Positions 7,531-51,897 are shown, counted from the stretch's first letter. The stretch: DNA of 51,897 nucleotides from a virus (IMGVR_UViG_3300020156_000459:1-51897); one strand, 5' to 3'. Notes: generated from the letters alone by a model not told the origin. Program-made: numbers and translations.

Positions 7531-7533
7531 GGC

Positions 7534-10500: not shown

Positions 10501-13500
10501 GCCGCCGACGAAGGACTCACCGGAAGTGGTCAACATCGGCGTGTTGGCGATCGCCGTGTCGCCGATGACGTCGACATAGACGGTCGACAGGCCCGCCTGC
10601 TGGCCGAGCGACGACGTCGCGAACCAGTTGGCCGCGTTCCCCAGCGTCGAGGCGCCGTTGTAGATCGAGTAGGCGCCGGACGCGGCCGACAGGCCGTTCG
10701 ACACCGTGGAGAACATGCCGCCCTGGCCGGCCGCCTGGGCCTGCCCGGCGATGTTCGACGCGGCGCTGGCGCCGCTGGAGAACATGGACCACAGCGACGG
10801 GCTGGAGCCGCCGGTCATCCAGTTCTTCATCGGGTTGATGACGGCCAGCTGCAACGCGGCCTGCACCAGCTCCGACAGGACGGCCTTGGCGACCGAGCCG
10901 AAGGTGATGGCCGATCCCTTGCCTTCGACGAAGGCTTGAGTGATCGCGCTGCCTATGCGGTCGAAGGCCCGCTCGCCGATCCGCGCCAGCTCGTCCCACA
11001 GGGCGCGCTGCTCGCCGATGGAGCGTTGGGTGCGCAGGATCGTGTCTTCCTTGCGCAGAAGGGCCTTGACCTCCTCCTCGGTCGCCTGGGGGTTCTGCCG
11101 CCGGATTTCCAGCTCCGCACGGGCCAGGGCCAAGATGTGTTCGCGCACCTCGGCGGACTGCCCCTGGAGCGACAGCTCCAGCTCCGCCAGCTTCAGCTCG
11201 TCGTCCTTGGCCTTCGACGCCGCTTCGTAGTTCTGCTGCGCCTGCCACCTGGCCAGCTCCGCCGTCTTGGCGGCGATGGCCTTGCCGCGCTCACTGTCGA
11301 GGCGGACACCCTCCCGCTCGGCCTGGGCGGCGGCGGCGTTCTTGACGGTCGCCTCCGTCACCGCCTTGGCGCCGTCGCGCTCGGCCAGCGCCAGCGCCTT
11401 GGCGGCGGCGATCTGGAGGTCCATGTCGCGCGTCCACTGCGCGGCGGCGAGCGCGCGGCGGGCGGCGTCCTCCTCCTTCAGGGCCCGCGCCAGGGCAGAG
11501 TGCGCGCCGGCCCCGGACTTGGCCGTCTCCGTCTCGATCCGGTTGGCCAGCTCCTGGGCGGCCACGGCGTCGGCGCCCTGGGCGTAGGCGTCAGCCAGCG
11601 CCAGCATCTGGCGGGCCGACCGCGACGTGACGTTGGCCTGCGCGCCGATCTCGCCGGACAGCTCGGCCATGCCGGACTTCAGGACGGCGGCGCGGGCCGC
11701 CTTGGCCTGTTCCTTGTCGCCGGACTTGGCCAGCTCCTGGTCGTAGGCATTCTCGGCCTGCGCGGCGACCACGGCGGCTTGACTGCCGCTGGCGCGTGCC
11801 TGGGCGAGGCGCTCCGTCGCCTTGGCTTCCAGGTCGAGCTGCGCCACCCGGTCGGCGCCACGGGCGGACTGGTTGCGGCGGGTGGCGGCGGTGAGGTCGG
11901 CCGCCTCGTCGTCGGTGAGGGGGCGGCCCTTCTCCTCCGCTGCCTTTTCGAGCGTCTGGTAGAGTTCGCGCCGCCAGCCGTCCGGCACGGACAGGGCGGC
12001 TGTCGTGTCGTTCAGCGCCTTGATGGCGGCGGTGACCGGGTCGATCTTCTCGCGCAGCCGGTCCATCATCATGGCGATGTCGGCCGCCGTGACGCCCAGC
12101 TTCTTCAGCTCCTCCGGCGGGAGCGCGGCGACCTTGGTCAGAAGCCCCATGCCCTGGGCCAACGCGGCCTGCGACGCGGTGAGCAACCCGGTCTTGCCCG
12201 GCAGCAGGTCCAGTTCCTTGGCCAGTTCGGCGAAGGGGATGGCCAGCTTGGCCGCGGCGCTGGCGACGGTGCCCAGCCCGTCGCCGGTCACGCCCCACAT
12301 TTCCGCCCAGCCGTCGCTGCTGGTGACGACCACCTGATCCAGGGCGTTCCAGCGTCGGGTGACCTCGTCCAACTCGCGATTGATCCGCGCGAGGTCCGCC
12401 TCCGCGGCCTTGGCGTTGCGGCTGGCGTAGACGCCGCCGGCCCCGGCGCGGTAGCGGGCGAGTTCCTTCTCCTTGGCGTCCCGCTCCGCCAGCAGCTCGT
12501 CGAAGCGCTGGCTCTCGAACAGTCGCGCGGCGCCGGCCTGCCCGTTGTTGCTCCACTGGAGGAAGCGGGTGCCGAGGTTCAGTGCACCGGCGCCATAGTC
12601 GGCGGCCGACGTCGTGCCGGGCAGCGCAGGCTTACCGACCTCGGCCAGGAACTTCTTGCGGGCGTTCTCCAACCGCGCCCACGCGCCCTCGACACCCTGG
12701 GCCGCCGCCGCCGCCTCGCCGCTATAACCCTTCAGGGCCTTGACCAGGGTGTCGCGGAAGACCTCGGAGGTGACCTTGCCCTCGTTGATCAGCCGGCGGA
12801 AGCCGCCGGCCGGCAGGCCCGCCGCCTTGTCCAGGTCGAGGAGAAGGCCGGGCAGCGGCTCCACAACCTGGTTCAGCTCCTCCATGTGCACGATGGGCGA
12901 GGCGAGAGCCTGTCCCAGGCCGTACATCACGTCGCCCATGCGGCCGGCGTCGGCCGCGAAGTGCGCCTGCGCGTCCTTGAGACCGACCGTCAGGTCGCGG
13001 GCCTGCTGGACGGTGAGCAGGCCGCCCTTGGCCAGCGTGAGGAACCGGGCGTAGCCGTCGCCCATCTCGCGCACGCTGGTGCCCAGCGCGTTGGCCGTGT
13101 TGCTCAACCAGAGCTGTGTTTCGCCGAAAGCCGTGCCGGAGCCGACCAGCCCCTTGAGGCGCCGGTCGAATTGCTCGGCCTCGGCAGCGGCGGTAACCGC
13201 GGCCTTGCCGAACGCGATGAGGCGATCGGCGGCGACCACCGCCATCAGGCCGCGGAAGCCGACCGTCAGTGCGTCGACGCGCTCGAACAGGCTGGCGGCG
13301 TTGTCGTTGACTGCGCCGGCCGCGCGGTTCCAGCCGAGCATGGCCCCGGCGTGCTGGCCCAGGTCGGCGGCGGCGTTGCGGTGGGCCGCCGCGCCGGCGA
13401 GGACCGCATCGTGCAACACCTGGGCGCGCGACGAGGCGAAGCCCATGTCCTCCCCCAGCCCTCGCGCGGCGCCGCGCTTGGCAGCAAGGGTGGTGACGTT

Positions 13501-13641
13501 TTCGGTTACGCCGGACAGCGAGCGGCCGGCGTCGTTGGCGGTCTCCTTCAGCCGTTCCAGCGTCTCGCGCGTGCGGCCGACCTCGCCCACAAGGCCCGAG
13601 GCGTCCGCCGTCAAGAGAAGGGCTAGCTTTTGGTCCGCCAC
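7534..13641 (-). CDS. Tail tape measure protein (2035 aa)
   Basis: Very long Ala-rich helical ORF after the chaperones; LLLTADASG N-terminus, ELNQVVEPLPGL motif, C-terminal RFAQGG...DSVRALLMPEERVL. Confidence 0.93.
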   Translation of the reverse strand: MADQKLALLLTADASGLVGEVGRTRETLERLKETANDAGRSLSGVTENVTTLAAKRGAARGLGEDMGFASSRAQVLHDAVLAGAAAHRNAAADLGQHAGAMLGWNRAAGAVNDNAASLFERVDALTVGFRGLMAVVAADRLIAFGKAAVTAAAEAEQFDRRLKGLVGSGTAFGETQLWLSNTANALGTSVREMGDGYARFLTLAKGGLLTVQQARDLTVGLKDAQAHFAADAGRMGDVMYGLGQALASPIVHMEELNQVVEPLPGLLLDLDKAAGLPAGGFRRLINEGKVTSEVFRDTLVKALKGYSGEAAAAAQGVEGAWARLENARKKFLAEVGKPALPGTTSAADYGAGALNLGTRFLQWSNNGQAGAARLFESQRFDELLAERDAKEKELARYRAGAGGVYASRNAKAAEADLARINRELDEVTRRWNALDQVVVTSSDGWAEMWGVTGDGLGTVASAAAKLAIPFAELAKELDLLPGKTGLLTASQAALAQGMGLLTKVAALPPEELKKLGVTAADIAMMMDRLREKIDPVTAAIKALNDTTAALSVPDGWRRELYQTLEKAAEEKGRPLTDDEAADLTAATRRNQSARGADRVAQLDLEAKATERLAQARASGSQAAVVAAQAENAYDQELAKSGDKEQAKAARAAVLKSGMAELSGEIGAQANVTSRSARQMLALADAYAQGADAVAAQELANRIETETAKSGAGAHSALARALKEEDAARRALAAAQWTRDMDLQIAAAKALALAERDGAKAVTEATVKNAAAAQAEREGVRLDSERGKAIAAKTAELARWQAQQNYEAASKAKDDELKLAELELSLQGQSAEVREHILALARAELEIRRQNPQATEEEVKALLRKEDTILRTQRSIGEQRALWDELARIGERAFDRIGSAITQAFVEGKGSAITFGSVAKAVLSELVQAALQLAVINPMKNWMTGGSSPSLWSMFSSGASAASNIAGQAQAAGQGGMFSTVSNGLSAASGAYSIYNGASTLGNAANWFATSSLGQQAGLSTVYVDVIGDTAIANTPMLTTSGESFVGGAASFGQVLAPAAIGGAGGAMIGTALNSKLAGGLAGAAIGGLSAYAATQMGLLSLGPYGWAAAAVLAAVMAVLGTQKETVGPISAGRMGIDDGKASLKSWGTDNEGSDENAKALGNAAAELFNGLLDIGSGRLDKAAKDYGLVISHFAKDGKFYSELDNQKSAGFDTAEEAVIDGVRRFQAKLVQAGKLAFEDDNVTKALKMSTAKTVEEFTKDLGAAATWTNVKKITREGYNPFDDQIKQWTTSAKEMGTTMQETYVDLLTRVTKLGLDTKENALPLLQKSFETELGLRTPDYRPLTGVAGVTKQAEIALEGLRSTLTALEYTAEAQADFSRRYVAAAVNAFEEGIQTVDRRATRSLRAKYDPTFRSTAADVLDELGLKAGEFPALTASLDGFFDKARSGKGTLDDLIGAKDELIRRLRNGRITADQFSSILGLLTQSFEDGRAAALAMESTLNASRARTARTLRGDGVVTVDELYSGTGLNRDAFPETTRRLRLLFGALAAGIQDVSLLNRAIEGLEANLRNGRITTEQFNTLYSEAIDRWDRTGLAASEAAATAQSAMEELASFARSTGADIQRYRDGLKTGNDGAAGYDERLKAAREQFVSQLSLIATSSDPTTVQEALRQITQYAETYRKLAQEGQASGLDYKGVEDFIDAALGGLPMVKSEAQRQTDALNAMPQLLAAALNAEGAPLSEIEKQTGISGPLAKQVPLGTLFEGIFGTGGGYLREMVEALRSIDAKTGTGGTGTGGTGTGGTGTGGGSTTPQPEGTVLDGGKASQVASASGGPLTWTIQNMYGGSFSSYLSNDLVQSKLHLNGILDQFEQQFGAAGIQWSEERYLRLNPDVAQALGGYPTGRGLEHYLRSGFFEGRRFAQGGKVPSTFPGAVSGLDSVRALLMPEERVLSVEQSRLIERLAESHGGPAVISVDTAAIARGLGEIRDRLDQLMQVVAGTGGAVKDAVGAVVDAVDELREEVTGDGEPVLMRAAGGH
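8231..8284. repeat. 15-bp tandem repeat GTGCCCGTCCCACCC x3.6 encoding a Gly/Thr linker in the tape measure
   Basis: Exact repeat units at 8231, 8246, 8261 and a partial unit at 8276. Confidence 0.9.
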
Positions 13642-13666
13642 GTTCCGCCTTCCGTCAAACCATTCG

Positions 13667-14062
13667 TCACGTCTTCGGGCGGCGGCGCTCGTACTCCGCC
13701 TCCCACACCGCCAGCGCCGCCTCTTCCATCGCTTGCAGGCTGGTCACCGTCTCCGCGTCCCAGGGAACCCCGTGGGCGTCGGCGAGCTGGCGGACCTGGA
13801 GGAGATCGAGGCCGAGCGGAACGCCCCCCATCGGCGGCTTGCGCCACATGCGCCGGGCGGCGTCGAACAGGGCGAAGATCGGCCAGACGGCGGCGTGCAC
13901 GACGAAGACGGGCGGCTCCGGCTCATCCTCCGGGTCGGCGGCTGGCGGGTCCTGTCCTGTCAGGGCCGCCAGCTCGTCGGCGTCGGGCTTGGCCGAGAAG
14001 CGGCGGCGCGCGGTGGAGGCGTCACCGCCGGCCCACCGCCGCGCCGCCGCTACGAGTTTCCC
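13667..14062 (-). CDS. Tail assembly chaperone, -1 frameshift extension (GT-type, DUF1799-like)
   Basis: -1 frame reads KLVAAARRWAGG...WPIFALF...W...GGVPLGLD...LQAMEEAAL; entered via the slippery site. Confidence 0.8.
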   Translation of the reverse strand, partial: GKLVAAARRWAGGDASTARRRFSAKPDADELAALTGQDPPAADPEDEPEPPVFVVHAAVWPIFALFDAARRMWRKPPMGGVPLGLDLLQVRQLADAHGVPWDAETVTSLQAMEEAALAVWEAEYERRRPKT

Positions 14063-14544
14063 GTCTTGCCACCGTTGACCAGCTTCCAGAACGCCTGCTC
14101 CAGACCGACGCCGATGGGGCGGAAATCGGCCATGGCCTCCACCAGGTCGGACGAGAACTCCGGCAGATCCTGGAAGATGCTGCCCCAGTTGTGGTTGTCC
14201 GGCAGGCCGACGACGACGCGGCGCAGCAGCGAGAGCCGCCAGCCCTTGTAATCGGCCTCCGCTTGCTCGGCCTCGCGCTTCGCCTCGGCCTTGGCCTCGT
14301 CGTCGGTGGCGTCGCGGACCTTCTTGGCGGCCGTGTTGATGCGGTCGATGTACTCCTGCAGCTCCTTCTGGAGGTCGTCCAGTTCGCTGTCCGGGACCAG
14401 CTCGAAGGTGACGAAGCAGGTCTTGGTGGTATGGCGGCCGGTGGTCGTGCGGCCGGGCTTGGCGGACTCCGGCCACTTGATCTCGACCGGCCAGTCGAAA
14501 GTGAGGCGGTCGCCCTGGACGAACTGAAGTTGCGGCTTGCTCAT
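14050..14544 (-). CDS. Tail assembly chaperone (G-type, 164 aa)
   Basis: Between tail tube and tape measure; TFDWPV N-terminal motif; ends ...KTGNS with a slippery heptamer. Confidence 0.85.
   Translation of the reverse strand: MSKPQLQFVQGDRLTFDWPVEIKWPESAKPGRTTTGRHTTKTCFVTFELVPDSELDDLQKELQEYIDRINTAAKKVRDATDDEAKAEAKREAEQAEADYKGWRLSLLRRVVVGLPDNHNWGSIFQDLPEFSSDLVEAMADFRPIGVGLEQAFWKLVNGGKTGNS
14056..14062 (-). promoter_or_regulatory. Programmed -1 frameshift site G GGA AAC
   Basis: X XXY YYZ heptamer in the correct frame just before the chaperone stop; the -1 frame is open for about 130 codons. Confidence 0.85.
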
Positions 14545-14576
14545 GGTAGCGGGCTCTCGAAAAGGGGATGGGATGA

Positions 14577-15860
14577 TCAGCGGGCGGAGATGAGCCACTC
14601 GTCGTCGCCGGTCACCGGCAGCAGCGCGGCCTGGACCTCGACGAGCGTGTCTTTCTTCGACTCCACCAGCTTGGGGGCCTTCAGCTGGGCGGCGGGAGCG
14701 GAGATGCGCACCACCTCGCCGGCGTTCCTGCCGTGCTGGAACAGCAGCGCGCCCCCGGTGCGGGCTTCAGCCGTGGCCCAGATGTTCCACTCGCCCAGGC
14801 TGGGGTATTCGAACTTGATGTTGGCCGTGCTCTTGCGGTCGTTGATGCGCACCGCCGTCCGGCCGACGCGCTCGACCAGTTCGACTTGGTTGCCCGCGTC
14901 CCAGCCGAACGTCTCGACAACCAAGTCGTTGCCATGCATCCGGAAGATCGGCGTGTTGGTTGTCGACACCTCGATCGGGTCGGGCCACACGGTGAAGTCC
15001 GGGGCCACACTCGCGGCCAGCGCCGGCGCCGTCCACAGCGAGGTGAGTTCCACCTCCAGGTACGGGAAGCCGTTGATCTCGCCCATCCCCTTGATGGCCC
15101 CACGCGTTCCGAGCATGGCGAACTTCTGCTGCTGGCCACCGGGATCGTTCATCAGGAAGTGGATGGCGCCGGACTTGTGGTTGTTGCGGTCGGAGCTGGG
15201 AGCGTAGTCGCTGCGCGCGGCCGACAGGGTGATGGTGAAGACGTCGCCGGCGGTGAAGGGTGTGCCGATAGCGTCAATGGTGATGACCGCCCCGCCCGGC
15301 AGCGCGAAGGGACTGCCGGTGGTCATCGTGACGGCGGTTTGGTTGTAGGCCGGCAGGTACTCGGTCCCCGGCGCGGCGACGGTGAACTGCGCCACGCCGG
15401 AGCCGCCGCCGGTGGTGCAGGTGAGCGTCGCCGTGCGGTCCAGCGTCCCGGCGCAGGCGGTTGTGCGGGTGTAGGTGAAGGCGCCGTCGCCGCTCGTCTT
15501 CACGGCGGCGGCGGCGATCGTCGCGCTGGCCGTCTTCGCCACCTGGGTGCGAGCGGTGCCACAGATGCGCATCACCGTGTCCCAGCACGGCGTGCCGGAG
15601 GCGCCGGCGCCGACCAGCGGCAGTTTGCCCGACAGCTTGTTGCGCTTGGCCACGAAGATGGAGCTGTTGGCGCCCATGTAGGGCTTCAGGTACGGCAGCT
15701 CCTTCTCCTCCACCTCCATCGGAGTGAAGGTCACGTCGTACAGGCGAATGGCGGTGGCGCCGTCCAGGGTCAGTCCGGCGTCGCTGCCGTAAGTGGCCTC
15801 CAGCGCCAACAGGATCGTCTTATGATCCCAATGGACCGGATGCGAGGGGATCTGCGGCAT
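14577..15860 (-). CDS. Major tail tube protein (427 aa) with a Thr/Gly-rich beta insertion
   Basis: KTILLALEATYGSDA N-terminus, LLFQHG..AGEVVRISAP..QL C-terminus; position before the chaperones. Confidence 0.8.
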   Translation of the reverse strand: MPQIPSHPVHWDHKTILLALEATYGSDAGLTLDGATAIRLYDVTFTPMEVEEKELPYLKPYMGANSSIFVAKRNKLSGKLPLVGAGASGTPCWDTVMRICGTARTQVAKTASATIAAAAVKTSGDGAFTYTRTTACAGTLDRTATLTCTTGGGSGVAQFTVAAPGTEYLPAYNQTAVTMTTGSPFALPGGAVITIDAIGTPFTAGDVFTITLSAARSDYAPSSDRNNHKSGAIHFLMNDPGGQQQKFAMLGTRGAIKGMGEINGFPYLEVELTSLWTAPALAASVAPDFTVWPDPIEVSTTNTPIFRMHGNDLVVETFGWDAGNQVELVERVGRTAVRINDRKSTANIKFEYPSLGEWNIWATAEARTGGALLFQHGRNAGEVVRISAPAAQLKAPKLVESKKDTLVEVQAALLPVTGDDEWLISAR

Positions 15861-20705: not shown

Positions 20706-20730
20706 CGTTTGAACGGGGTTTTGAACGCCT
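20706..20730. other. Conserved non-coding motif CGTTTGAACGGGGTTTTGAACGCCT (candidate strong gyrase site region)
   Basis: 24/25 identical to 50405-50429; near mid-genome and just upstream of the protease gene, where the Mu SGS lies. Confidence 0.55.
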
Positions 20731-43379: not shown

Positions 43380-43554
43380 CCGTCAAACCATCCGTCCGTC
43401 AGCGTACAATGCGGCGATGTCCGTATGGTTTGACAGAACGGAGTGGACGCGTCTCGAAAACCTAGGCATCACAACGCCTGCACGTCCCACTCGATCCCCC
43501 AAAATCCCACCGTATCCCGGCCCCCTATCCCGTCAAACCATTGGTCTCTCTACA
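43380..43554. repeat. Prophage repressor-side end (Mu L-end equivalent) with three end boxes
   Basis: CCGTCAAACCAT at 43380-43391 and 43530-43541, inverted ATGGTTTGACAG at 43425-43436; terminal CTACA. Confidence 0.88.
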
Positions 43555-43559
43555 CCGGT
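43555..43559. repeat. 5-bp target site duplication CCGGT (right copy)
   Basis: Matches 1535-1539. Confidence 0.95.
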
Positions 43560-44292
43560 GCGTCGATCGCCTCGGGCGTCAGGCGGAAGGTGCCGAAATG
43601 CATGGCTACGCTGGTGCGGGCACCCAGGTCCTCGTGCGCCGCCACCGCCTCCTCCGGGTTCATGTGCTGCGGCGCCATGAACCAGCGCGGCTCGTAGGCG
43701 CCGATGGGCAGCAGCGCCACGTCGATGCGCGGGAAGCGGGCGCCGATCTCCTTGAAATGCGGGCCGTAGCCGGTGTCGCCCGCGAAGTACAGCGTGCCGG
43801 CATCCGTCTCCACCACGAAGCCGCCCCACAGCGTCGTGTTGCGCCGGAAGGGCGCGCGCGCCGACCAGTGCTGCGCCGGCACGAAGGTGACGCGGCAGCC
43901 GGCCGGTCCCCGCGTGCTCTGCCACCAGTCCAGTTCCTCGACGTGCGCGAAGCCGTCGCCGTTCAGCAGCGGCCCGTTGCCCAGCCCCACCACCGCCCGC
44001 GGCCCGAAGCGCCGGGCCAGCGCCGCCAGCGACGGCCGGTCCAGGTGGTCGAAGTGCCCGTGGCTGACCAGCACGAGGTTCGGGTCCGGCAGCCGTTCCA
44101 GCGGCACGCCCGGCGGGCGGGCCCGCTTCGGCCCCAGCCGGCCGAACGGACCGGCCCGTTCGGAGAACACCGGGTCGGTGAGCAGGCGAAGGCCCGCCGC
44201 CTGCACCAGGAAGGTGGCGTGGCCGACATGGGTGACCGCCAGCGCGCCCGGTGCCGGGGGTGCCGGGACCGGCTGCGGCGGGTCCTCGACGC
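43555..44292 (-). pseudogene. Middle fragment of an MBL-fold metallo-hydrolase gene (NAPE-PLD/RomA-like), cut on both sides by insertions
   Basis: Open frame VEDPP...VTHVGHATFLVQ...LTDPVFSERA...SHGHFDHLD...PAQHWSAR...YFAGDTGY...PIGAYEP...MHFGTF; lacks both N- and C-termini. Confidence 0.92.
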
Positions 44293-44339
44293 TGTAGCGC
44301 GCCGAATGGTTTGAATTGGCGCGCTGGATGGTTTGACAG
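44293..44339 (+). repeat. Terminus of the second element with two end boxes
   Basis: TGTAGCGCGCCGAATGGTTTGAATTGGCGCGCTGGATGGTTTGACAG versus prophage TGTAGCGCGCCGAATGGTTTGACGGGCTGCGCCGGATGGTTTGACGG; same 22-bp box spacing. Confidence 0.93.
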
Positions 44340-44390
44340 CGCTGACACCCCGTTTCAGGCTTACCGGGAATTGAAGAAGCCTTGGCGCTT

Positions 44391-44807
44391 CTAGGCTAGC
44401 GCCGGCAGTGTCGCATCGTCGCCCAGGTGCGCAATTTGAACATTCCTTCCCGGCGGCTTCCCCCCTGGAGGCTCGATGATAACAACGCCGTCTTTCGTAT
44501 GATAATGGATAATCAGGACTGTGCGCGCACATCTGGCGGGATTGGAAAGACGGGACAGGGCTTGCCGATTGTACTTTTTCAAAAAGCGAAAGCATTCACG
44601 CATATAGATCCTGTATTCTTCCTGAATATCTTTGCGGAGCTGTTCCAATGCCGTTGGGCATGGCGGGTTGCCGCACAGATCGCTTTCCCACTTGGCAAAT
44701 ACATTATTCAAACGCGATGAAAGGTCGGCCGCCACTTCCCCTGACAGCAGGCGCGCGGTTACCTTCTGTGGGCGCTCCCCTGTGCCGTCATACGCGTGCT
44801 GCATCAA
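44391..44807 (-). CDS. Hypothetical low-GC cargo protein (138 aa)
   Basis: Longest plausible ORF in an AT-richer patch; no family recognised. Confidence 0.45.
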   Translation of the reverse strand: MMQHAYDGTGERPQKVTARLLSGEVAADLSSRLNNVFAKWESDLCGNPPCPTALEQLRKDIQEEYRIYMRECFRFLKKYNRQALSRLSNPARCARTVLIIHYHTKDGVVIIEPPGGKPPGRNVQIAHLGDDATLPALA

Positions 44808-44855
44808 CGTCCACTCCTGATTGGTTCGTTATGCCCTCCCGCTCGACAAGAGGGC

Positions 44856-44883
44856 CGCTCGGCCGGATCTGGCCGGCCGAGCG
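44856..44883 (-). terminator. Hairpin after the satellite chaperone gene
   Basis: CGCTCGGCCGG-ATCTGG-CCGGCCGAGCG perfect 11-bp stem, 8 nt past the stop; weak U-tract. Confidence 0.5.
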
Positions 44884-44891
44884 CGCCGGAA

Positions 44892-45416
44892 TCACTTCGG
44901 CTGCTCGCCGTTGACGAGCTGCCAATAGGCGTCCTCCATCGCCTTGCCGATCACGCGATAGCCGGCCATGGCTTCCACGAGGTCGGGCGAGAAGTCCGGC
45001 AGCGTCGAGAAGAAGGCATTCCAGCCGTGGTTGTCGGGCAGCCCCACCACCACCTTCCGCAGCAGCTCCGTGCGAAAGCCCTTGTGCTGGCTTTCCAGCT
45101 TCTCGACTTTGGCGTTGAGTTCCTTCAGATCCTTTTTCGCCTTGGCGGCGTTGCCGTCCGACGCTTCCAGGGCGAGTTTCGCGGCCTCCTGCTTGGCCTC
45201 CGCGATCTCGCTGACGCGCTGGCCCAGCTCGGCGATGAGCTGATCGTGCTCGCTGTCCGGCAGCAGCATGAACGACAGATAACAGGTCTTTTTGACCTGT
45301 TTCCCACCCACCCAGCCGCCGCTGGCACGCTTGGCCGTTTCCGGCCAGTTGAACATGACCGGCCACACAAACGTCATTTCGGTGGGGGCTGCAAGAGTAA
45401 TCTTAACCTGTTCCAT
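44892..45416 (-). CDS. Tail assembly chaperone homologue (G-type, 174 aa)
   Basis: Clear paralogue of 14050-14544: TFVWPV/TFDWPV, LLRKVVVGLPDNHGW/LLRRVVVGLPDNHNW, DLVEAMA, WQLVNG/WKLVNG. Confidence 0.88.
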   Translation of the reverse strand: MEQVKITLAAPTEMTFVWPVMFNWPETAKRASGGWVGGKQVKKTCYLSFMLLPDSEHDQLIAELGQRVSEIAEAKQEAAKLALEASDGNAAKAKKDLKELNAKVEKLESQHKGFRTELLRKVVVGLPDNHGWNAFFSTLPDFSPDLVEAMAGYRVIGKAMEDAYWQLVNGEQPK

Positions 45417-45439
45417 TTCCGCTCTCACTCGTTCTTTAG

Positions 45440-45820
45440 TTAATCCATCAACGAATTGAAGTATTCTGCAATGTCTCTCCATTCGCCTGTCAAAGACTGC
45501 TTTGCTGATGCGATCAGGTCATTGATGTACACCTCAACTTCGAACCTGACATTCTTTCTTTTGTTTTGGTACAGCGCGCTCAGTCGGCGCCTCTGCCAGC
45601 GCTTTGTTAACATGGACCCGAGAAGGCGTTCGGTGTCGTCAATGTGCGCCACCAGTATTCTCTCAATGCTTGCTCGCAGATCGGAAAACAGAGGATGTCT
45701 GGCATCAAAATGTTCTGATGATCCAACCAGTTCAGAAAACGCATTGCGATTGCTGATATCCCAGCGTTCCAGCACGCTGCGGATTGCGTCAGCTCCGTTT
45801 GTCGGCATAGCGGGGCGCAT
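45440..45820 (-). CDS. Hypothetical low-GC protein (126 aa)
   Basis: ATG coupled to the upstream TAA; helical and charged. Confidence 0.55.
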   Translation of the reverse strand: MRPAMPTNGADAIRSVLERWDISNRNAFSELVGSSEHFDARHPLFSDLRASIERILVAHIDDTERLLGSMLTKRWQRRRLSALYQNKRKNVRFEVEVYINDLIASAKQSLTGEWRDIAEYFNSLMD

Positions 45821-46482
45821 TATCCGAAACTCGACGCTGTTGCGGTTCTGGATCGGTATTCGGCCGCGTGCGGGCACCCAAAGCGGTCGTAATACTCGCT
45901 ATAATCAGGGTAAAATCCTGCTATTTTTTGATCGGCGCCATGCTCATTTACTTCGGTAAGATGCATGACGCCACCAATGCACATTGGTTGACTAAATTTC
46001 TCCTGTACCTTGTGCTGCCCAAGCGCCATCTTTACCATCATGGCCTCATCGGCATGCGCGGGAAGGCGCACACCCGGCGCCATTCTGGGCGCAAGATGAA
46101 TGCCCGGCTCCATCGTGGTCGCCTGGACAGGCACACCACCGGCGCGAAGCTTGTACCTCGTGCTCTGCGGCGCCTGCTTGTTGGCGGACCAGCACATCAA
46201 CGTGATTTCACCACCGGACGCTTCGAAGAATTCATCACCGATACGCTCGGGGACGCCGCGAATAACGATATCCACATGCTCTATGCTTTCGACGCGCGCC
46301 AGTACAGGCCCAAGGACTTGAAGAAGCGCATGTGTTCCGCGCATGGAGAATGCAAATCGGCCGCTCTCAGAGACGAAACACTTTCGTTCGCAAAGGCCAA
46401 CCGGCATGTTGCCCCGGTATATCATCGTGTCCGTCAGGCACAAAATGCGGTCGCTTCCCACGAATACGTTGCTGACGCTCAT
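45820..46482 (-). CDS. Hypothetical protein, possibly Ntn-hydrolase/proteasome-beta-like fold (220 aa)
   Basis: N-terminus MSVSNVFVGSDRILCLTDT and late CIGGVMHLTEV resemble the Ntn pattern; tentative. Confidence 0.55.
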   Translation of the reverse strand: MSVSNVFVGSDRILCLTDTMIYRGNMPVGLCERKCFVSESGRFAFSMRGTHALLQVLGPVLARVESIEHVDIVIRGVPERIGDEFFEASGGEITLMCWSANKQAPQSTRYKLRAGGVPVQATTMEPGIHLAPRMAPGVRLPAHADEAMMVKMALGQHKVQEKFSQPMCIGGVMHLTEVNEHGADQKIAGFYPDYSEYYDRFGCPHAAEYRSRTATASSFG

Positions 46483-47867
46483 TTAATTGCCTCTTCGAAC
46501 GCGGAGACGACTTCGGGGCAGGTCAAGAATTCGTCCGAGAACTCACACTCGGCCATAACCTTCTCAAGCTCGTTGGACAGATCCTTCAGATTGTCCGTCT
46601 GGGTCACGACACCGCCACTGCCGTTGGCGGGCGGGGCGTTGTCCTGCTTCGTCAGGTCGTTGAGTTCGCGTTGCAGCTCGATCCGGCGCTTGACCAGCGC
46701 CTCATGCATGGCGGGAACGCCGCTCGTTTTCTCGGGAAGGCGCCCGTACTCCCGGTCTATCCGCTCGATCTCCGCCCGCAACAGCGACGCCCTGTCCGAC
46801 TCGATGCCGGCGCGAAGCGCCTTGGCCGCGTCACTGACCTTGCCCGCAACCAGCTTGGCAATGTCGCTCCGGGCGAGGCGGTCAACGTAGGCGTCCCAGG
46901 CCACGCCAGCGTCATGCAGCGCGGCGCCCCACTCGCTGCGCATGGTCTGGGCCGCGCCACCGTACCGCTGGCGCAACGCCTCGATGGCGACGTTCAGCGC
47001 GCCGGCCTTGTTGCCGTGGTCAGCCAGCATGCGCACCTGGCGCTCTTGCTCGACCGACAGGAAGTTCAATTCCGCATCGAGTCGCTTGACGCCCTCGCCC
47101 CCCTTGCCGAGAGCGTCCCCCATCTTGGCGGCGGCGGCCGGGATCGTGTAGCCCAGCACCGCCGCAACATCCGGCGCGAGTTCCAGGATGCTGCGGAACA
47201 GCTCCGGGTCACGGAGGTCGGGGTTGCGCACCAGCTCCAAGGTGGACTGGTATGCTTCGCTGCGGGACGCCCCTGCATGGATCGCGACGTTCGCCATGTC
47301 GCGGAGCTGGCCGGCCGTGATGCCGGCCTCATTGCCCATCGCCTTCAGGATGGACGCGAGTTCCCGCCCCTCGGCACCGATGCTCGCCATGCGCGCGGCG
47401 ACGATGCCGATCGGCGCGGCGATCACGGCGGCGGCGGCGCCGATGCCCAGGATGCGGCCCGTGATGCCGGGGAACGCTTGGAGCAACTGCCCGCCCTGTT
47501 GCATCAGGACGGTGAACGGGCTGGCGCCGGACGACAGCGATGCCGCAACGTCGCTGGCCGTGTAGCTCAGCGCCTGGATCTGCTGCGTGCTGAACCTCGT
47601 CTTGGTCGCCAAGTTGTCGTTGGCGCTGGCCGCACCGCCGAACGCCGCACCGGCCCTGTCGGCGGCGCCGGCCGCAGCGCCCAGCGATTGCTTCGCCTCG
47701 TCCGCCAGTGTGTCCAGGCGGCCAAGCGCCTGTGAAAGTTGCTGGCCAGCTTCCCGGCCAGTATCACCAAGCTTGGACACCTCGCCCGTTGCCTTGCGAA
47801 GCTCCACTACGAAGTCTTCGGCTTCCGCAGTCAGCTTGAGGACGACGTGTTCTGCAACCTTGGTCAT
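46479..47867 (-). CDS. Short tape-measure-family protein (462 aa)
   Basis: VVLKLTAEA N-terminus; QQIQALSYTASDVAASLSSGASPFTVLMQQGGQL lambda-type TMP motif; LNFLSVEQERQVR.L...GNKAGA. Confidence 0.85.
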   Translation of the reverse strand: MTKVAEHVVLKLTAEAEDFVVELRKATGEVSKLGDTGREAGQQLSQALGRLDTLADEAKQSLGAAAGAADRAGAAFGGAASANDNLATKTRFSTQQIQALSYTASDVAASLSSGASPFTVLMQQGGQLLQAFPGITGRILGIGAAAAVIAAPIGIVAARMASIGAEGRELASILKAMGNEAGITAGQLRDMANVAIHAGASRSEAYQSTLELVRNPDLRDPELFRSILELAPDVAAVLGYTIPAAAAKMGDALGKGGEGVKRLDAELNFLSVEQERQVRMLADHGNKAGALNVAIEALRQRYGGAAQTMRSEWGAALHDAGVAWDAYVDRLARSDIAKLVAGKVSDAAKALRAGIESDRASLLRAEIERIDREYGRLPEKTSGVPAMHEALVKRRIELQRELNDLTKQDNAPPANGSGGVVTQTDNLKDLSNELEKVMAECEFSDEFLTCPEVVSAFEEAIK

Positions 47868-47984
47868 GACGATACTCGCTCGCGATTGGGCCGGCGCTGG
47901 ACTGCTAGACCAGCCCAGCGCCGGCCGCACTCCGATGCGGTAAGGAGAGCCGGCCCCCGCACCGGATGCCGCTGGGATGCCCGG

Positions 47985-48905
47985 TTACAGGTACGGGGAC
48001 ACCACCAGTTCGGCGGTGCCGGCCCACTCGTTGGGCGCCGCGACCGTCTGTTCGTTCGGCGCCGTGCCCACCGTGACCAGCTTCATGTTGTTCTTGATGA
48101 GACGCAGCCCGTCGCCTTCCAACTCGTCCGGCACCACGAGGATGTTGGGGGTAAGGCCCAGCTTCTTGCCGTTCTCGCCCCGGATGCTCTTGATCGCCAC
48201 GCGGGCCGCCTCGTAGTTGTCGTGCGTCAGCGGCGCCTTGCTCGCATAGGCGAGCTGCCAGAGCCCGAAGCCGGCGTTGGCGCGCGCGCGGACGCCGTAG
48301 AAATACTCGTCTTTCCAGAAGACGTTGTCGTCCGTGGCGGCGTCCTGCCTCTGGAACTCGTACGGCAGCCGCTCCTGAAACACGAGGGGTTTGACCGGCT
48401 GGCCGGCGTCCATCAGGAACCACGCCGGCCCGGCCCCATCCTGATAGTTGCTGTAGGACGTAGGCTGACAGTCGATATCCACGACATGATCAGTGGAGAA
48501 GAACGGCTTGCCGTCGTAGCACAGCTCGGTAAACCCGGCTGCCAGAAGCTCGTACACCAACTGGTCGGGGTGCTTCGCCGCGTCGGCGCCCATCTTCTCG
48601 TACAGCGGGCCGAAGACGCCGTACTGGTCATCTTCGATGGCCGTACGGGGAACGCCAATGGTCACCTCAAACGTGCGGTTCTTGATGGTGTAGCCCGCGA
48701 CTTCAAGGTTATGGATGATACGCGAGCCGATCCATTCCCGAAGCTGCGGAAGTTCCTTCAACCAACCATAAGCTTCTTCGCCCGTCGCGCTGTTTGTCTT
48801 CATGGCGATTTTCAGGTACGTGCTTTCGACGCCCTTGAAGCCCTTGTTGAAGGAGGTCTTGAACCCGGCGAACATGCCGGCGAGGTTGGGGGCGGTGATG
48901 AGCAT
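47985..48905 (-). CDS. Second Mu-like major capsid protein (306 aa)
   Basis: YGWL...LREWIGSR, IEDDQYG, CYDGKPFFSTDH, GFGLWQLA, PNILVVP; intact, diverged paralogue of 18087-18980. Confidence 0.95.
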   Translation of the reverse strand: MLITAPNLAGMFAGFKTSFNKGFKGVESTYLKIAMKTNSATGEEAYGWLKELPQLREWIGSRIIHNLEVAGYTIKNRTFEVTIGVPRTAIEDDQYGVFGPLYEKMGADAAKHPDQLVYELLAAGFTELCYDGKPFFSTDHVVDIDCQPTSYSNYQDGAGPAWFLMDAGQPVKPLVFQERLPYEFQRQDAATDDNVFWKDEYFYGVRARANAGFGLWQLAYASKAPLTHDNYEAARVAIKSIRGENGKKLGLTPNILVVPDELEGDGLRLIKNNMKLVTVGTAPNEQTVAAPNEWAGTAELVVSPYL

Positions 48906-48914
48906 GGCTGTCCC

Positions 48915-49880
48915 TTACAGGTTCTTGGCGTATTCGGCCGGATCGTGTCCGAGGGCCGCGCAGATGGCCTTCTGTTCGGCGGTAAGGCGCCCATCGGCGC
49001 CCGAGTTCGGATCGGGCGGCCGGCCCCCCGGCACCACCTCACGGGCGAGGTTGCCGAACACGGGCGGAGCGCTGGCGGCGAACTGGTCGAAGCTGGCCGG
49101 GTTGGATCGGCAGAGGACGAGCCCCCACTCCCGCTGGGCCGGTGTCATCTTGCCGGCGCGGATCGCGGCGTCGACCTTGGCCGTCGCCTGCTCCTCCGAA
49201 AGGTTGGTGCGCATGCTGGCGAGCTGCGTCGCGGCTTCATCATAGAGATGGCGCGGCACGTAGAGGGACGGGTCGGGCACGGCGGCGGCCGTCGCCTTCT
49301 CGCTGGCGTCCTTGACCAGCTTCGTGACGGCCTCGATCACGGCCGCTTCGTCGCTGGTGTCGGGCAGGTTCAACAGCGCGCACAAGCGCTTGATGGTTTC
49401 GGGCGACATGGGCGCTCCCATACTGGCAAGGGCCTTGAGTTCGAAGGCCGGGTTGTTGACCAGGGCGGCCCGAAGAATGCAGGTGACCGCGCCTTCCTTG
49501 GTGTGCCGGAAGACGGGGGACACGTAGCGGTACTCCCTGGCCGCGATCTTGGCAGCGGCGCGCTGCGTCCACTCCACGCGGCCCCAGATGCCATCAGGGC
49601 GGGCCTCAAAGGCCGCGATCCAGCCTGCGGCGGGCGCCTGTCCACCGTGCGGGGCGGCGAGGTCAACGGCGTGGTCGTAGTCGATCACCGGCTTGACCGG
49701 ACCGGCCATCGTCAGGGACGCGGCGATCACCTGTTGCGCGGCGGCCATGCCGGGAAGGGACCAGGGGCCGCGACCGTCGCGGCCCTTGATGGTGCCGTAG
49801 GGCAGAAGCTGCACCCAATCCGGCGGTGCGGCGGGGAGTTCGGAAGAGAAGGAGGCGAGAGCGATCAGGGGATCAGTCAT
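48915..49880 (-). CDS. Second Mu-like protease/scaffold (321 aa)
   Basis: WVQLLPYG...DGRGPW, IDYDH, APAAGWI, VEWT, EYRYVSPVF, ALVNNPA, LTAEQKAICAALG. Confidence 0.95.
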   Translation of the reverse strand: MTDPLIALASFSSELPAAPPDWVQLLPYGTIKGRDGRGPWSLPGMAAAQQVIAASLTMAGPVKPVIDYDHAVDLAAPHGGQAPAAGWIAAFEARPDGIWGRVEWTQRAAAKIAAREYRYVSPVFRHTKEGAVTCILRAALVNNPAFELKALASMGAPMSPETIKRLCALLNLPDTSDEAAVIEAVTKLVKDASEKATAAAVPDPSLYVPRHLYDEAATQLASMRTNLSEEQATAKVDAAIRAGKMTPAQREWGLVLCRSNPASFDQFAASAPPVFGNLAREVVPGGRPPDPNSGADGRLTAEQKAICAALGHDPAEYAKNL

Positions 49881-50247
49881 TGCTAATATCCCCATAGATC
49901 TCGCGGCGCACTTTCCTTACGTGGCGTTCAGTACATCCCACGGCCTGTGCGACGACACGCGTTTTCGCGCCTTCCATCGCCAATATCAGTTCCTTCTTGG
50001 AACCAGCCGGCGGCGGCAACACCGGGATGTCAATCTGTTCTCCAGGATACATATTTCCTATTATTTTGGCGTGCTCCAGTCCGACAATCTTTGCGATCTT
50101 GGATCGTTCCGAAGGGCTCGCGGCAAATTTCCTCTTAGTGCCGCCCCAAGAAAGGCCAAGTTTTATTGCCGTTTCGTATGATGTCGCCCGCGCAATACCC
50201 GCCAAGAAGGGAGGAAGCCTCTTGATCCTGTCATCAGTGATCGCCAT
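49873..50247 (-). CDS. Mor/C-family activator homologue (124 aa; start could be further upstream)
   Basis: Shares WGGTKRK, YPGEQ.D.P and GCTERHVRKV with 29039-29413. Confidence 0.85.
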   Translation of the reverse strand: MAITDDRIKRLPPFLAGIARATSYETAIKLGLSWGGTKRKFAASPSERSKIAKIVGLEHAKIIGNMYPGEQIDIPVLPPPAGSKKELILAMEGAKTRVVAQAVGCTERHVRKVRREIYGDISND

Positions 50248-50272
50248 AGCCTTGACGTAGCCCCCCGGCATC

Positions 50273-50330
50273 GGAATTGGTTCCGACACTAGGGGGACGG
50301 AGAAGCGTCTATCGACGCGGAACTAGTTCC
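50273..50330 (-). promoter_or_regulatory. Putative late promoter of the second element
   Basis: GACGCGGAACTAGTTCC (50314-50330) with TAGTGT 27 nt downstream of the core; second dyad GGAATTGGTTCC at 50273-50284. Confidence 0.65.
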
Positions 50331-50404
50331 CCTTTGTCGGGGGAGCTGAGAGATATCCAGCTTTGATGAAGAGGAGCGGCCGATACGCCCGGCCGATTGC
50401 CGCC

Positions 50405-50429
50405 CGTTTGAACGGGGCTTTGAACGCCT
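50405..50429. other. Copy of the prophage mid-genome motif (candidate gyrase site region)
   Basis: CGTTTGAACGGGGCTTTGAACGCCT, 24/25 identical to 20706-20730. Confidence 0.55.
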
Positions 50430-50533
50430 CTGGGGCGTAGGGCGCACCCACGCTACCGGAAAACGCCAGAACGCACCAGCGGGCTTCCTGTGGGCTTCCA
50501 GGGCGGGGCACCCGGCAGCCACCTCCAATGCGA

Positions 50534-50564
50534 AACGCCCCGCCGGTAGACCCGGCGGGGCGTT
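50534..50564 (-). terminator. Intrinsic terminator-like hairpin separating regulatory and late genes of the second element
   Basis: AACGCCCCGCCGG-TAGAC-CCGGCGGGGCGTT, 13-bp stem, short T-run on the - strand. Confidence 0.7.
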
Positions 50565-50588
50565 GGTGTCGGCAGCGCGGCGAGGCGT

Positions 50589-50921
50589 CTACGCCTCGCG
50601 GGCGTGCCCGCCAGCGCCAACCGCGCGCTCCATGATCGTATCGACCTTCTCCGTGACTAGCTCCAGCATGGCGATCCACTGGCCCCGCTCGGTGGTGCCC
50701 ATGATCATCGCTTCAATGGCGCGCAGTCCGGCCTTCACCTGCATCAGGTCGTCGCCCAGGCTGTGTTCTGCCTCGCCAGCGACGTAGCCGGCCATGCCCC
50801 TCCTACGCGCCTTCCCCATGATGGACGTGAGTTCTTCGATCACCGCTTCTCTGACCGCGCTCCCCCGCTCCGCGCTGTTCTTGAGGAAGATCACGTTGTT
50901 TCCGGTGTTGTCGTGGGCCAT
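50589..50921 (-). CDS. Hypothetical protein (110 aa, MAHDNTGNNVIFLK...)
   Basis: GGAGG upstream; helical composition; the frame is also open up to 51032. Confidence 0.55.
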   Translation of the reverse strand: MAHDNTGNNVIFLKNSAERGSAVREAVIEELTSIMGKARRRGMAGYVAGEAEHSLGDDLMQVKAGLRAIEAMIMGTTERGQWIAMLELVTEKVDTIMERAVGAGGHAREA

Positions 50922-51028
50922 ATTCGAAGAGCCTCCTATGGGTTCGCCCGGTGGCACGGTGGCGGGGCACGGTTTTCCAGGCCAAGCGCCCCGCCACCAC
51001 CCGTCGCGGGCGGTGGGGTGGTAGGGAA

Positions 51029-51553
51029 TCACGATCCGGCGATGTCGAGGATGCGACGCGCCTTCTCGATGGTGACCGTCAGTTCCATGCGCACGAGGTT
51101 GGTTGTGGGGATGCCAGCCCCCGCCTCGCCCATGTCCAGGCCCGGCGGGATCGGCGGGGCCTCACCCTCCGGCCCGAAGGTCGTGTAGAGCCACCGCAGC
51201 ACCCCAACGGCGTGGGCGGAGCGACTACGGGCCACCATCACCTTCGCGGCAGGGATGGAAAGAAGGCGGGTTGCGGCGCCTCTCCCGTCGTCGATCTGGC
51301 GCAGTAGGACGGCGCCCGGCTCTCGCAGTTCCGGGAAGGTTGACGCGGCATGGTCCACCGACTGCCTTGCCCAACTGGCGCCGGCCGCCCGCATCAGGTC
51401 GTTGCCGAGGACGTAGGTTGTGCCGTCCACCGAGAAGACGCGGACGGGGGCCGCACCACAGTAGAGGGTGCAGACAGGCGGCAGGCGGGCGTTGTCGGCT
51501 GGCACCTCGGGCCGTCCTTCGGCGGGGGCCGCTGGTGTGCGGGGATCGTCCAT
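51029..51553 (-). CDS. BRO-N/antirepressor-like protein (174 aa)
   Basis: PVRVFSVDGTTYVLGNDLMRAAG, LLS, RS..A..VLRWL resemble BRO-N; GGAG RBS. Confidence 0.6.
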   Translation of the reverse strand: MDDPRTPAAPAEGRPEVPADNARLPPVCTLYCGAAPVRVFSVDGTTYVLGNDLMRAAGASWARQSVDHAASTFPELREPGAVLLRQIDDGRGAATRLLSIPAAKVMVARSRSAHAVGVLRWLYTTFGPEGEAPPIPPGLDMGEAGAGIPTTNLVRMELTVTIEKARRILDIAGS

Positions 51554-51581
51554 CTACTGCTCCAAACTGCGGTTGCGTTGG

Positions 51582-51652
51582 CCCCATGCATGGGGTAATT
51601 TGCCCCAGATTGGGCGCCGTTGCAATGGCAAAATGCGCCAACGTTGGGGTAA
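51582..51652. promoter_or_regulatory. Operator-like palindromes in the divergent promoter region
   Basis: CCCCATGCATGGGG, CCCCAGATTGGG, CGCCAACGTTGGGG; TGGGGTAA occurs twice. Confidence 0.55.
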
Positions 51653-51660
51653 ATCGCACC

Positions 51661-51897
51661 ATGATTACGGGTGACCAAATCCGGGCCGGCCGGGAACTGC
51701 TCAACTGGTCTGCCCGCGTCTTGTCTGAGCGGGCAGGCGTGGGGCCGAACACGGTGCAGCGCATGGAAAGCGCCGGAGCGGCGGTGCCATCAGGTCTTGC
51801 CGCCAACCTGGACAAGGTGCAGAAGGCATTAGAGGCGGGTGGGATTGAGTTCCGGGACGGCGGGTGGGTGCGTAGGTCACCGCAGAACGGCGCGTAA
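51661..51897 (+). CDS. XRE-family HTH regulator (78 aa)
   Basis: MITGDQIRAGRELLNWS...LSERAGVG..TVQRME...KVQKALEAGGIEF. Confidence 0.88.
   Translation: MITGDQIRAGRELLNWSARVLSERAGVGPNTVQRMESAGAAVPSGLAANLDKVQKALEAGGIEFRDGGWVRRSPQNGA

Follow-up and report, generated by a model that had tools for sequence, protein, structure and literature searches.

The virus record IMGVR_UViG_3300020156_000459:1-51897 is for the most part taken up by P1, a Mu-like prophage on the minus strand, next to which lies a second, much smaller element that we call E2. The window analysed here is this entire record of 51,897 bases; E2 runs from position 44293 to 902 bp beyond the window's end and is complete at 8,507 bp. 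We consider it very probable that E2 is a non-autonomous Mu-type element with ends matched to those of a helper. With less assurance we favour the view that it is a true satellite of Mu-like siphophages of P1's type, i.e., a natural mini-Mu without transposase, and judged from its sequence E2 most likely parasitises the neighbouring phage to move and be packaged. A first-pass annotation of the window had proposed a transposable satellite of a Mu-like phage that builds its own capsid and remodels the tail; its observation was confirmed, and its interpretation is partly supported by the results described below.

Ends and insertion site of E2

The part of E2 that lies beyond the window was read from a 100,719-bp contig (L001) of an Azospirillum metagenome-assembled genome (MAG), obtained in a genome-contig scan. 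This contig is 100% identical to the window across 13,910 bases and extends 7 kb past its end. At the right end of E2 (44293..44337) the terminal 22 bases equal the right end of P1 and are followed by a second GCGC..GGATGGTTTGAC box. The 22-mer (44293-44314) has exactly one other copy, at 1540-1561 on the same strand, and two matches to it arose in none of 100 shuffles, so that the identical terminus described in the first-pass annotation stands. The left end (L001 6107 onward) starts with TGTGGAGAGACCAATGGTTTGAC... and aligns to the left end of P1, with 58 of the first 62 bases equal and 90% identity over 70 bases (blastn). E2 thus has two boxes at its right end and a left end that opens with TGTG, and in the MAG the end-box motif occurs at 9 places, all of them on one contig and confined to P1 and E2.

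Outside both ends of E2 we found an exact target duplication, GCGTC (GACGC in the orientation of the window). One copy is formed by the final 5 bases (44288-44292) of a 738-bp segment from an MBL-fold gene of the host (43555..44292, minus strand; PF12706, 148 bits) that separates E2 from P1, and the start of the MBL-fold gene comes directly after the duplication at the far end; all three stretches of host coding sequence derive from a single MBL-fold gene. Extension into L001 therefore gave what had been predicted from the window, namely a far Mu end, a duplicate of GACGC and the 5′ part of the MBL gene, with no MuA or MuB in between, as expected of a non-autonomous element whose cis sites match those of its neighbour. 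In addition, a contig from another study (run X4, soil; a strain approximately 95% identical) joins L001 position 6099 to 14619 with 7 letters between them, which is the MBL gene minus E2 and minus the second copy of the duplication. E2 is a real insertion, as this contig has the matching empty site. Pieces 94-97% identical to the gpI and tape measure region of E2 are also present in X4; its near-zero depth across the left regulatory part of E2 and the helper marks an uncovered region and carries no weight.

The candidate helper P1

P1 (1540..43554, minus strand) is a complete Mu-like siphophage prophage by its ends, its target duplication and its Pfam and PHROG families. Its right end begins at 1540 with TGTAGCGCGCCGAATGGTTTGA, its left end closes at 43554 with ...CTCTACA, and the 5-bp duplication CCGGT borders it on either side, which gives a size of 42,015 bp. 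It encodes a 724-amino-acid (AA) MuA with rve, Mu-transpos_C and HTH_Tnp_Mu_1, a 275-AA AAA protein in the place of MuB, and TerL, Mu portal, MuF, gpI, gpT, adaptor and neck proteins (Pfam, PHROG). Its tape measure is 2035 AA long and belongs to family TMP_3, and P1 also has the lysis and tail functions that E2 is without. P1 and E2 share the same orientation, at a spacing of 738 bp.

Gene content of E2

Twelve open reading frames (ORFs) of E2 were assessed against Pfam and PHROG. None of them matched a transposase, MuB, portal, terminase, lysis or integrase family, nor rve, Mu-transpos_C or AAA, nor a primase/replicase or small terminase, and the biggest unassigned ORF encodes 174 AA. Every ORF is intact and several are start/stop-coupled, in agreement with the earlier description of a selective, coupled gene set lacking portal, terminase, lysis and transposase genes.

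The late operon is read from the minus strand. It opens with a Mor/C-type late activator of 138 AA (49873..50289; phrog_836, E 2e-12), followed by gpI, a Mu-type protease/scaffold of 326 AA (48915..49895; PF10123, 241 bits), and gpT, a Mu-type major capsid protein of 306 AA (47985..48905; PF10124, 378 bits). Next comes a tape measure of family TMP_2 (46479..47867; PF06791, 86 bits vs. a cut-off of 30.2), which has 462 AA in its database form and 483 AA from the first GTG, the full ORF reaching 47930. Its stop overlaps the start of the gene for a 220-AA proteasome-beta/HslV-like peptidase (45820..46482), which is followed by a 145-AA ORF with no assigned function and 51% G+C (45440..45877) and by a gene for a 196-AA protein (44892..45482). 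The latter resembles a tail assembly chaperone by predicted structure (Atlas structural neighbours PF08748, template modelling (TM) score 0.49-0.57) and is 44% identical to the product of the helper gene 14050-14598, which is flanked by the putative tail tube gene (427-AA protein) on one side and by the gene for the tape measure on the other. The first-pass assignment as a tail chaperone is a putative one, drawn from structural neighbours and from the position of the helper paralogue, and no Pfam or PHROG family was matched at a useful E-value. Close to the right end there is a doubtful ORF of 138 AA (44391..44807, minus strand) with weak codon bias and no family.

The early region, on the same strand, consists of a 147-AA ORF with no assigned function (50589..51032) and a 174-AA ORF without family (51029..51553). 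A GC-rich hairpin seen by eye after the former was not picked up by the terminator scan, and a promoter and terminator scan gave a signal no higher than in shuffles. Divergent from this operon lies the gene for an XRE-type helix-turn-helix regulator of up to 90 AA (51625..51897, plus strand; PF01381, HTH_3, 26 bits vs. a cut-off of 23), whose stop codon closes on the final base of the window. Of the XRE/BRO switch proposed in the first-pass annotation, the XRE part holds, whereas the BRO-like label of the 174-AA protein found no support: the protein gave no Pfam match at E ≤ 0.05 and no PHROG match at E ≤ 0.01, and its single-sequence model (predicted local distance difference test, pLDDT, 46.6) was too poor for a structure search. 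Among 201 related genomes it is present in one, its own. A 65-AA ORF (L001 6726-6923) lies beyond the window.

Comparison of E2 and P1

The genes shared by E2 and P1 are diverged paralogues, as had been claimed, with protein identities of 50% for gpT, 41% for gpI, 40% for the activator and 44% for the 196-AA protein. At the DNA level, the common coding stretches are 68-71% identical and the ends 87-100% identical. The cis sites of E2 are preserved far better than its genes. Base composition differs as well, with 62.8% G+C in E2 vs. 69.7% in the helper.

All DNA segments of E2 that resemble the helper are collinear with P1, for which reason we regard E2 as a reduced Mu-type backbone plus a foreign cassette. 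The tape measure, the peptidase and the 145-AA ORF look like such a cassette, with gpT on one side of it and the chaperone-like gene on the other; no counterpart of the tape measure was matched in P1 at E ≤ 0.01, and the families of the two tape measures differ (TMP_2 in E2, TMP_3 in the helper). The gene order that the first-pass annotation called reordered is better explained by this cassette.

Similarity also extends to the putative late control region. A direct repeat, CGTTCAAA-N4-CGTTCAAA, is found upstream of the E2 late operon (50407..50426, minus strand), and its sole other exact copy in the window, with 0.15 expected by chance, is at 20708-20727, upstream of the helper gpI. It is followed by two more short collinear matches between E2 and P1, and the activators of both elements have the identical stretch GCTERHVRKV.

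When the left-end 17-mer was searched in IMG/VR, three stretches were recovered. One of these is a true end of a helper-type phage (L259), whose left end past base 23 is clearly less P1-like than that of E2; the two others were taken as chance matches. Just inside the left ends of P1 (43484-43531) and E2 (L001:6130-6180) we also noted GGGAT/GGGAC repeats with a spacing of approximately 10 bp, and repeats of similar type occur in L259 and in an element-helper pair from genome G522 described below. By their sequence these are candidates for a pac site or another protein-binding array.

The tape measure and peptidase module

The AlphaFold2 model of the 220-AA protein has a pLDDT of 95.1 and matches 20S proteasome beta subunits of the PDB (Foldseek, E 3e-8, probability 1.00, TM 0.50-0.60), with which an Atlas match (TM 0.66) agrees. 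Proteasome beta subunits have a Thr1/Asp17/Lys33 arrangement. Among 64 aligned relatives of the E2 protein, the N-terminus is M-S in 54 and M-T in 10, and D18 and K34 are invariant in all; this pattern fits the same arrangement and would make the protein an N-terminal nucleophile (Ntn) enzyme. On its model, we class this product as an Ntn peptidase similar to proteasome beta/HslV, with activity predicted. The family counts 185 representatives among 1.84 billion; a set of 50,697 phage records gave no match to it, and 401 genomes sampled from the class gave two, one being the own genome of E2 and the other weak.

Short tape measures of 462, 448, 460, 449 and 464 AA, at 36-60% identity, have a common C-terminus. 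With the tape measure profile, the short form was detected among 201 related genomes only in that of E2; in the other 200 the matches are the N-termini of much longer frames. When metagenomes were scanned with an alignment of the tape measures, six loci were recovered, five of them at 26-31% identity and one a 51-residue piece at 61%. In IMG/VR, this alignment recovered 80 loci at 26-34% identity, none of which has other E2 genes.

The pair of tape measure and peptidase is also found in elements of a different kind. L253 and L254 (IMG/VR; L253:1-13586), of 14-17 kb, encode a P4-type tyrosine integrase, TerS, TerL, portal, an HK97-type protease-capsid fusion and an adaptor, and have a 562-AA TMP_2 tape measure followed directly by a peptidase homologue (37%). 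They share with E2 the short TMP_2 gene, the peptidase homologue after it and the lack of a tail tube gene; they differ from it by their integrase, TerS, TerL, portal and HK97-type fusion and by having no Mu ends. L253 and L254 may represent a satellite that forms capsids and has a tail module. As the pair occurs there too, it appears to move between two kinds of small tail-less elements, which suggests a shared tail-hijacking module. A decayed integrase-type relative is L257 (G006:C1:2158000-2177999): its protease-capsid gene is truncated, an insertion interrupts its peptidase gene, and besides a tape measure of 735 AA it has three genes that resemble transposases. This module shows what decay looks like, and E2 is without such signs; together with the recurring short tape measures, the relatives described below and the dN/dS values of gpT and gpI, this argues for a lineage over recent decay.

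Related elements in other genomes

For the best gpT match to E2 (72%), a tape measure (60%) and a peptidase (46%), the longest contig on record has one and the same length, 8,946 bp, and the gpT/tape measure pairs P0022/P0007 and P0023/P0006 share longest contigs of 4,870 and 103,746 bp, respectively. Other contigs thus appear to carry the capsid, short tape measure and peptidase together. At 153 other gpT loci, none of the unassigned or regulatory genes of E2 was found at 1e-5, and seven tape measure matches at these loci lie at least 3 kb downstream of gpT, as in ordinary phages.

The next-best gpT belongs to an island of Roseomonas genomospecies 6 (L002, 3685-11861 in G016:C27; 8,177 bp, 62% G+C) with inverted terminal boxes. 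Its only particle genes are gpI and gpT, 56% and 62% identical to those of E2. The island also codes for a CI-like repressor, a 704-AA MuA-like protein (weak Mu-transpos_C match), a MuB-like protein, GemA and a Mor-like protein; portal, terminase and tail genes were not found in it. It is a miniature Mu with the transposase retained. The end boxes (GGRAATTAT) are unlike those of a full P1-type prophage elsewhere in the same genome; an exact 5-bp duplication was not established for the island, and ACGC repeats at the borders as drawn. Against the L002 copies, the ratio of nonsynonymous to synonymous substitution rates (dN/dS) is 0.27 for gpT and 0.34 for gpI, at a dS of approximately 1.1.

Two further records place a small element beside a larger phage. 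The IMG/VR provirus G519 (42,768 bp) holds a P1-type prophage with its own gpT and a second element (L108, G519:C1:38702-42768), which interrupts ner of that helper and is oriented like it. This element has gpI (56%), gpT (64-66%), a Mor-like gene and a right end resembling that of its helper. In the window and in G519 alike, no more than approximately 1-3 kb separates a Mu-type insertion from another Mu left end, a range over which target immunity should bar insertions. In G522, a gpI-gpT element with a TMP_2 tape measure immediately after it lies approximately 5 kb from a full Mu-like prophage; from its left end to gpI there are only small ORFs and no room for a transposase. Its left end opens with TGTAACCCGCAGG, as does that of its helper (86% identity over 44 bases), and the two gpT copies of G522 are 48% identical. 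The end family of this pair differs from that of E2; as the two members share it with each other, the ends co-vary with the helper from pair to pair.

L274 and L276, too, have a TMP_2 gene immediately after gpT. The first of these is part of the provirus G520 (L274, L356, L357), where we observed two gpI-gpT pairs, one of them directly followed by a gene for a 1205-AA TMP_2 protein that has 85%-identical DNA stretches in common with the tape measure region of the other copy.

Read depth in public sequencing runs

Four public runs (X1-X4) were compared with L001:3000-20918, depth being available as one value per contig. In X1, possibly the source sample of the E2 record, a 9,000-bp contig over E2 (L001 5843-14842, no differences) has a depth of 469. 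The contigs of the left flank are at 111-135, plus a variant contig at 29, and a contig over the host spacer and the left part of P1 is at 162. By these values E2 exceeds its surroundings approximately 3-fold in abundance, with no amplification of P1. In the RNA runs X2 and X3, E2 is present at 100% identity. Independently of E2, a stretch of approximately 40 bases upstream of the MBL gene (L001:4162-4201) has a depth above 2,000 in X1, and each of the four runs shows many differing loose ends there; this stretch is a short repeat dispersed in the host or the community.

E2 in relation to known elements

Laboratory mini-Mu and Mud elements move and are packaged with a helper Mu ("mini-Muduction"). 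E2 resembles them in having both Mu ends, no A or B genes and a 5-bp target duplication, and in that transposition, replication and headful packaging would be expected only with the MuA, MuB and virion proteins of a helper. Unlike them, it is natural, has its own regulators and a late morphogenesis operon, and is no deletion derivative, its proteins being 40-50% identical to those of the helper; it also belongs to a group of similar small elements.

Mu-like transposable siphophages, which we take to be those of the D3112/B3/RcapMu type, share with E2 the end architecture, gpI and gpT, a Mor/C-type activator and a left-end regulator divergent from the early operon. E2 differs from them in having no transposase, MuB, portal, terminase, MuF, neck, tube, tail tip or lysis genes and in its size (8.5 kb vs. 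approximately 37-42 kb). Set against an autonomous Mu-like phage, it has the TG...CA boxed termini and the 5-bp duplication and lacks MuA and MuB and the portal, terminase, tail and lysis genes. It fits the general picture of a satellite, being small, without essential virion and replication functions, and 738 bp away from a capable helper. It has no integrase such as would place it with P4, PICI, cf-PICI, PLE or EPIP elements, and no primase/replicase or small terminase of its own as in P4-like elements, PICIs and cf-PICIs.

The EPIPs of Mycolicibacterium are reported in a preprint (PMC12822802) to be satellites with scaffold, capsid and tape measure genes, smaller heads and altered tails; according to the same preprint, tape measures are otherwise unreported in satellites, except for a proposed PLE11 protein. 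The cf-PICIs and EPIPs are like E2 in their small genome, their own scaffold and major capsid protein and the lack of tail tube and lysis genes, EPIPs also in the tape measure. They have their own tyrosine or serine integrase (serine in EPIPs), and most have a small terminase; E2, in contrast, has Mu ends, a transposition-type duplication and no integrase or terminase gene. All satellite classes named in this preprint enter the chromosome by their own integrase (PMC12822802). The claim of the first-pass annotation that satellites use integrases held in the literature searched, whereas the content of E2 in capsid and tape measure genes is less unusual than it had supposed, since such satellites are in print (EPIPs, PMC12822802). 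No description of a transposase-less Mu-type satellite was found in the literature searched.

The other satellite classes known to us likewise use an integrase of their own.

A possible mechanism

Upon induction of the early genes of the helper, its MuA and MuB would bind the ends of E2 and replicate and move the element by transposition. The promoter region in common with the helper gpI and the same recognition stretch in the activator may then switch on one coupled late operon, fired either by the late regulator of the helper or by the activator of E2 itself, with the order activator, scaffold/protease, capsid, short tape measure, proteasome-like peptidase, 145-AA protein and chaperone-like protein. 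The helper terminase would recognise the copied left-end (pac-side) sequence and package E2 by headful, with use of the portal, neck and tail parts of the helper. In the weakest step of the scheme, the capsid, scaffold, tape measure and chaperone of E2 probably bias assembly to particles that suit it; that E2 resizes capsids and remodels tails, as first proposed, we hold to be doubtful. The position of E2 by the helper's left end may matter by supplying transposase in cis in the next cell: a helper-size headful from the E2 pac would take in E2, the 738-bp spacer and the repressor-ner-A-B region of P1, without the right end of P1. Small heads holding approximately 9 kb are an alternative idea.

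Strength of the satellite reading and alternative explanations

Several points weigh against a satellite lifestyle of E2 or limit what can be drawn from the data. Packaging, transfer and helper dependence are inferred from sequence and depth. Without MuA expressed in the recipient cell, E2 by itself has no means of integrating, and to our knowledge every described satellite class brings such means along. The high-depth contig of X1 takes in approximately 250 bp of each flank, so the position of the depth step is hidden, the status of X1 as source is only possible and its depths are per contig; in the RNA runs, host and helper are covered about as well as E2. The MuA of L259 is only 64% identical, yet the first 23 bases of its left end are the same, and part of the end similarity between E2 and P1 could thus be due to slow evolution. 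Relatives with the same core do exist, as the first-pass annotation had expected, but for the closest of them synteny was inferred from equal longest-contig sizes and not from sequence. Virus records hold small elements only beside predicted prophages, so that finding a small element next to a helper is partly a matter of ascertainment. In G520, no full MuA and no clear ends were found, which leaves this provirus uninterpretable. Finally, the MAG contains a single copy of E2, and the gpT of the G519 element is split by an insertion sequence of the Mutator family, which makes it a decaying relative.

These last observations would also be expected if E2 were a passive, decaying remnant, in which a full Mu-like prophage lost genes by internal deletions, the ends could still be moved in trans and the gene set is unselected. 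We regard this as unlikely, though it is the strongest of the alternatives. It agrees with the single copy, with the visible decay of the G519 and G006 relatives and with the collinearity of all helper-like segments with the helper map, as nested deletions would leave it; the target duplication would outlast such deletions as well. Yet at least four separate deletions would be needed, each having to leave intact, coupled ORFs, and the tape measure, the peptidase and the 145-AA ORF, which are without counterpart in the helper type, look acquired. Short tape measures of near-equal size with the common C-terminus recur elsewhere at 36-60% identity, and the small gpI-gpT core recurs in bounded 8-kb elements. 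The far better preservation of the ends than of the genes and the approximately 3-fold depth of the E2 contig over its flanks likewise speak against a passive remnant.

A less likely explanation still is a domesticated interference island, kept by the host because the diverged capsid, scaffold, tape measure and chaperone poison Mu-like phages, with spread being secondary. The helper-like promoter region and the shared recognition stretch of the activator suggest that the late operon of E2 would fire at late growth of the phage, and co-assembly of proteins that are 40-50% identical could plausibly yield defective hybrids. A pure defence function needs no Mu ends, however, whereas those of E2 are intact and near-identical to the helper's, including the pac-side sequence. 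Known defence families were unmatched in seven E2 proteins (PADLOC), and the G+C content unlike that of the host, together with the empty site in a related strain, argues for a recent mobile insertion.

An artefact in which parts of two different phages and of a host gene were fused during assembly is very improbable even for a metagenome-assembled contig such as this record, given that both elements have exact 5-bp duplications of differing sequence, that the three host pieces belong to one MBL-fold gene, that the independent 9,000-bp Logan contig of X1 crosses both junctions with no differences and that a contig of another study has the matching empty site.

Implications for Mu-like phages and their possible satellites

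In its broadest form, the satellite reading would mean that Mu-like phages have a satellite class of their own, which integrates and replicates solely via the helper transposase by copying the helper's end and pac sequences, and of which E2 would redirect assembly via its own scaffold/capsid pair, with a short tape measure processed by a dedicated proteasome-like peptidase. We put this forward as a tentative proposal that is less likely than not to hold. If it is true, a satellite without integration or replication of its own and reliant on the helper transposase would represent a new satellite mode, and E2 would be the natural counterpart of the laboratory-built mini-Mu tools. It would then also serve as a test bed for parasite/helper co-evolution of transposase-end specificity, for how target immunity permits insertions beside a Mu end, and for the role of a tape-measure-coupled proteasome-like peptidase in tail assembly.

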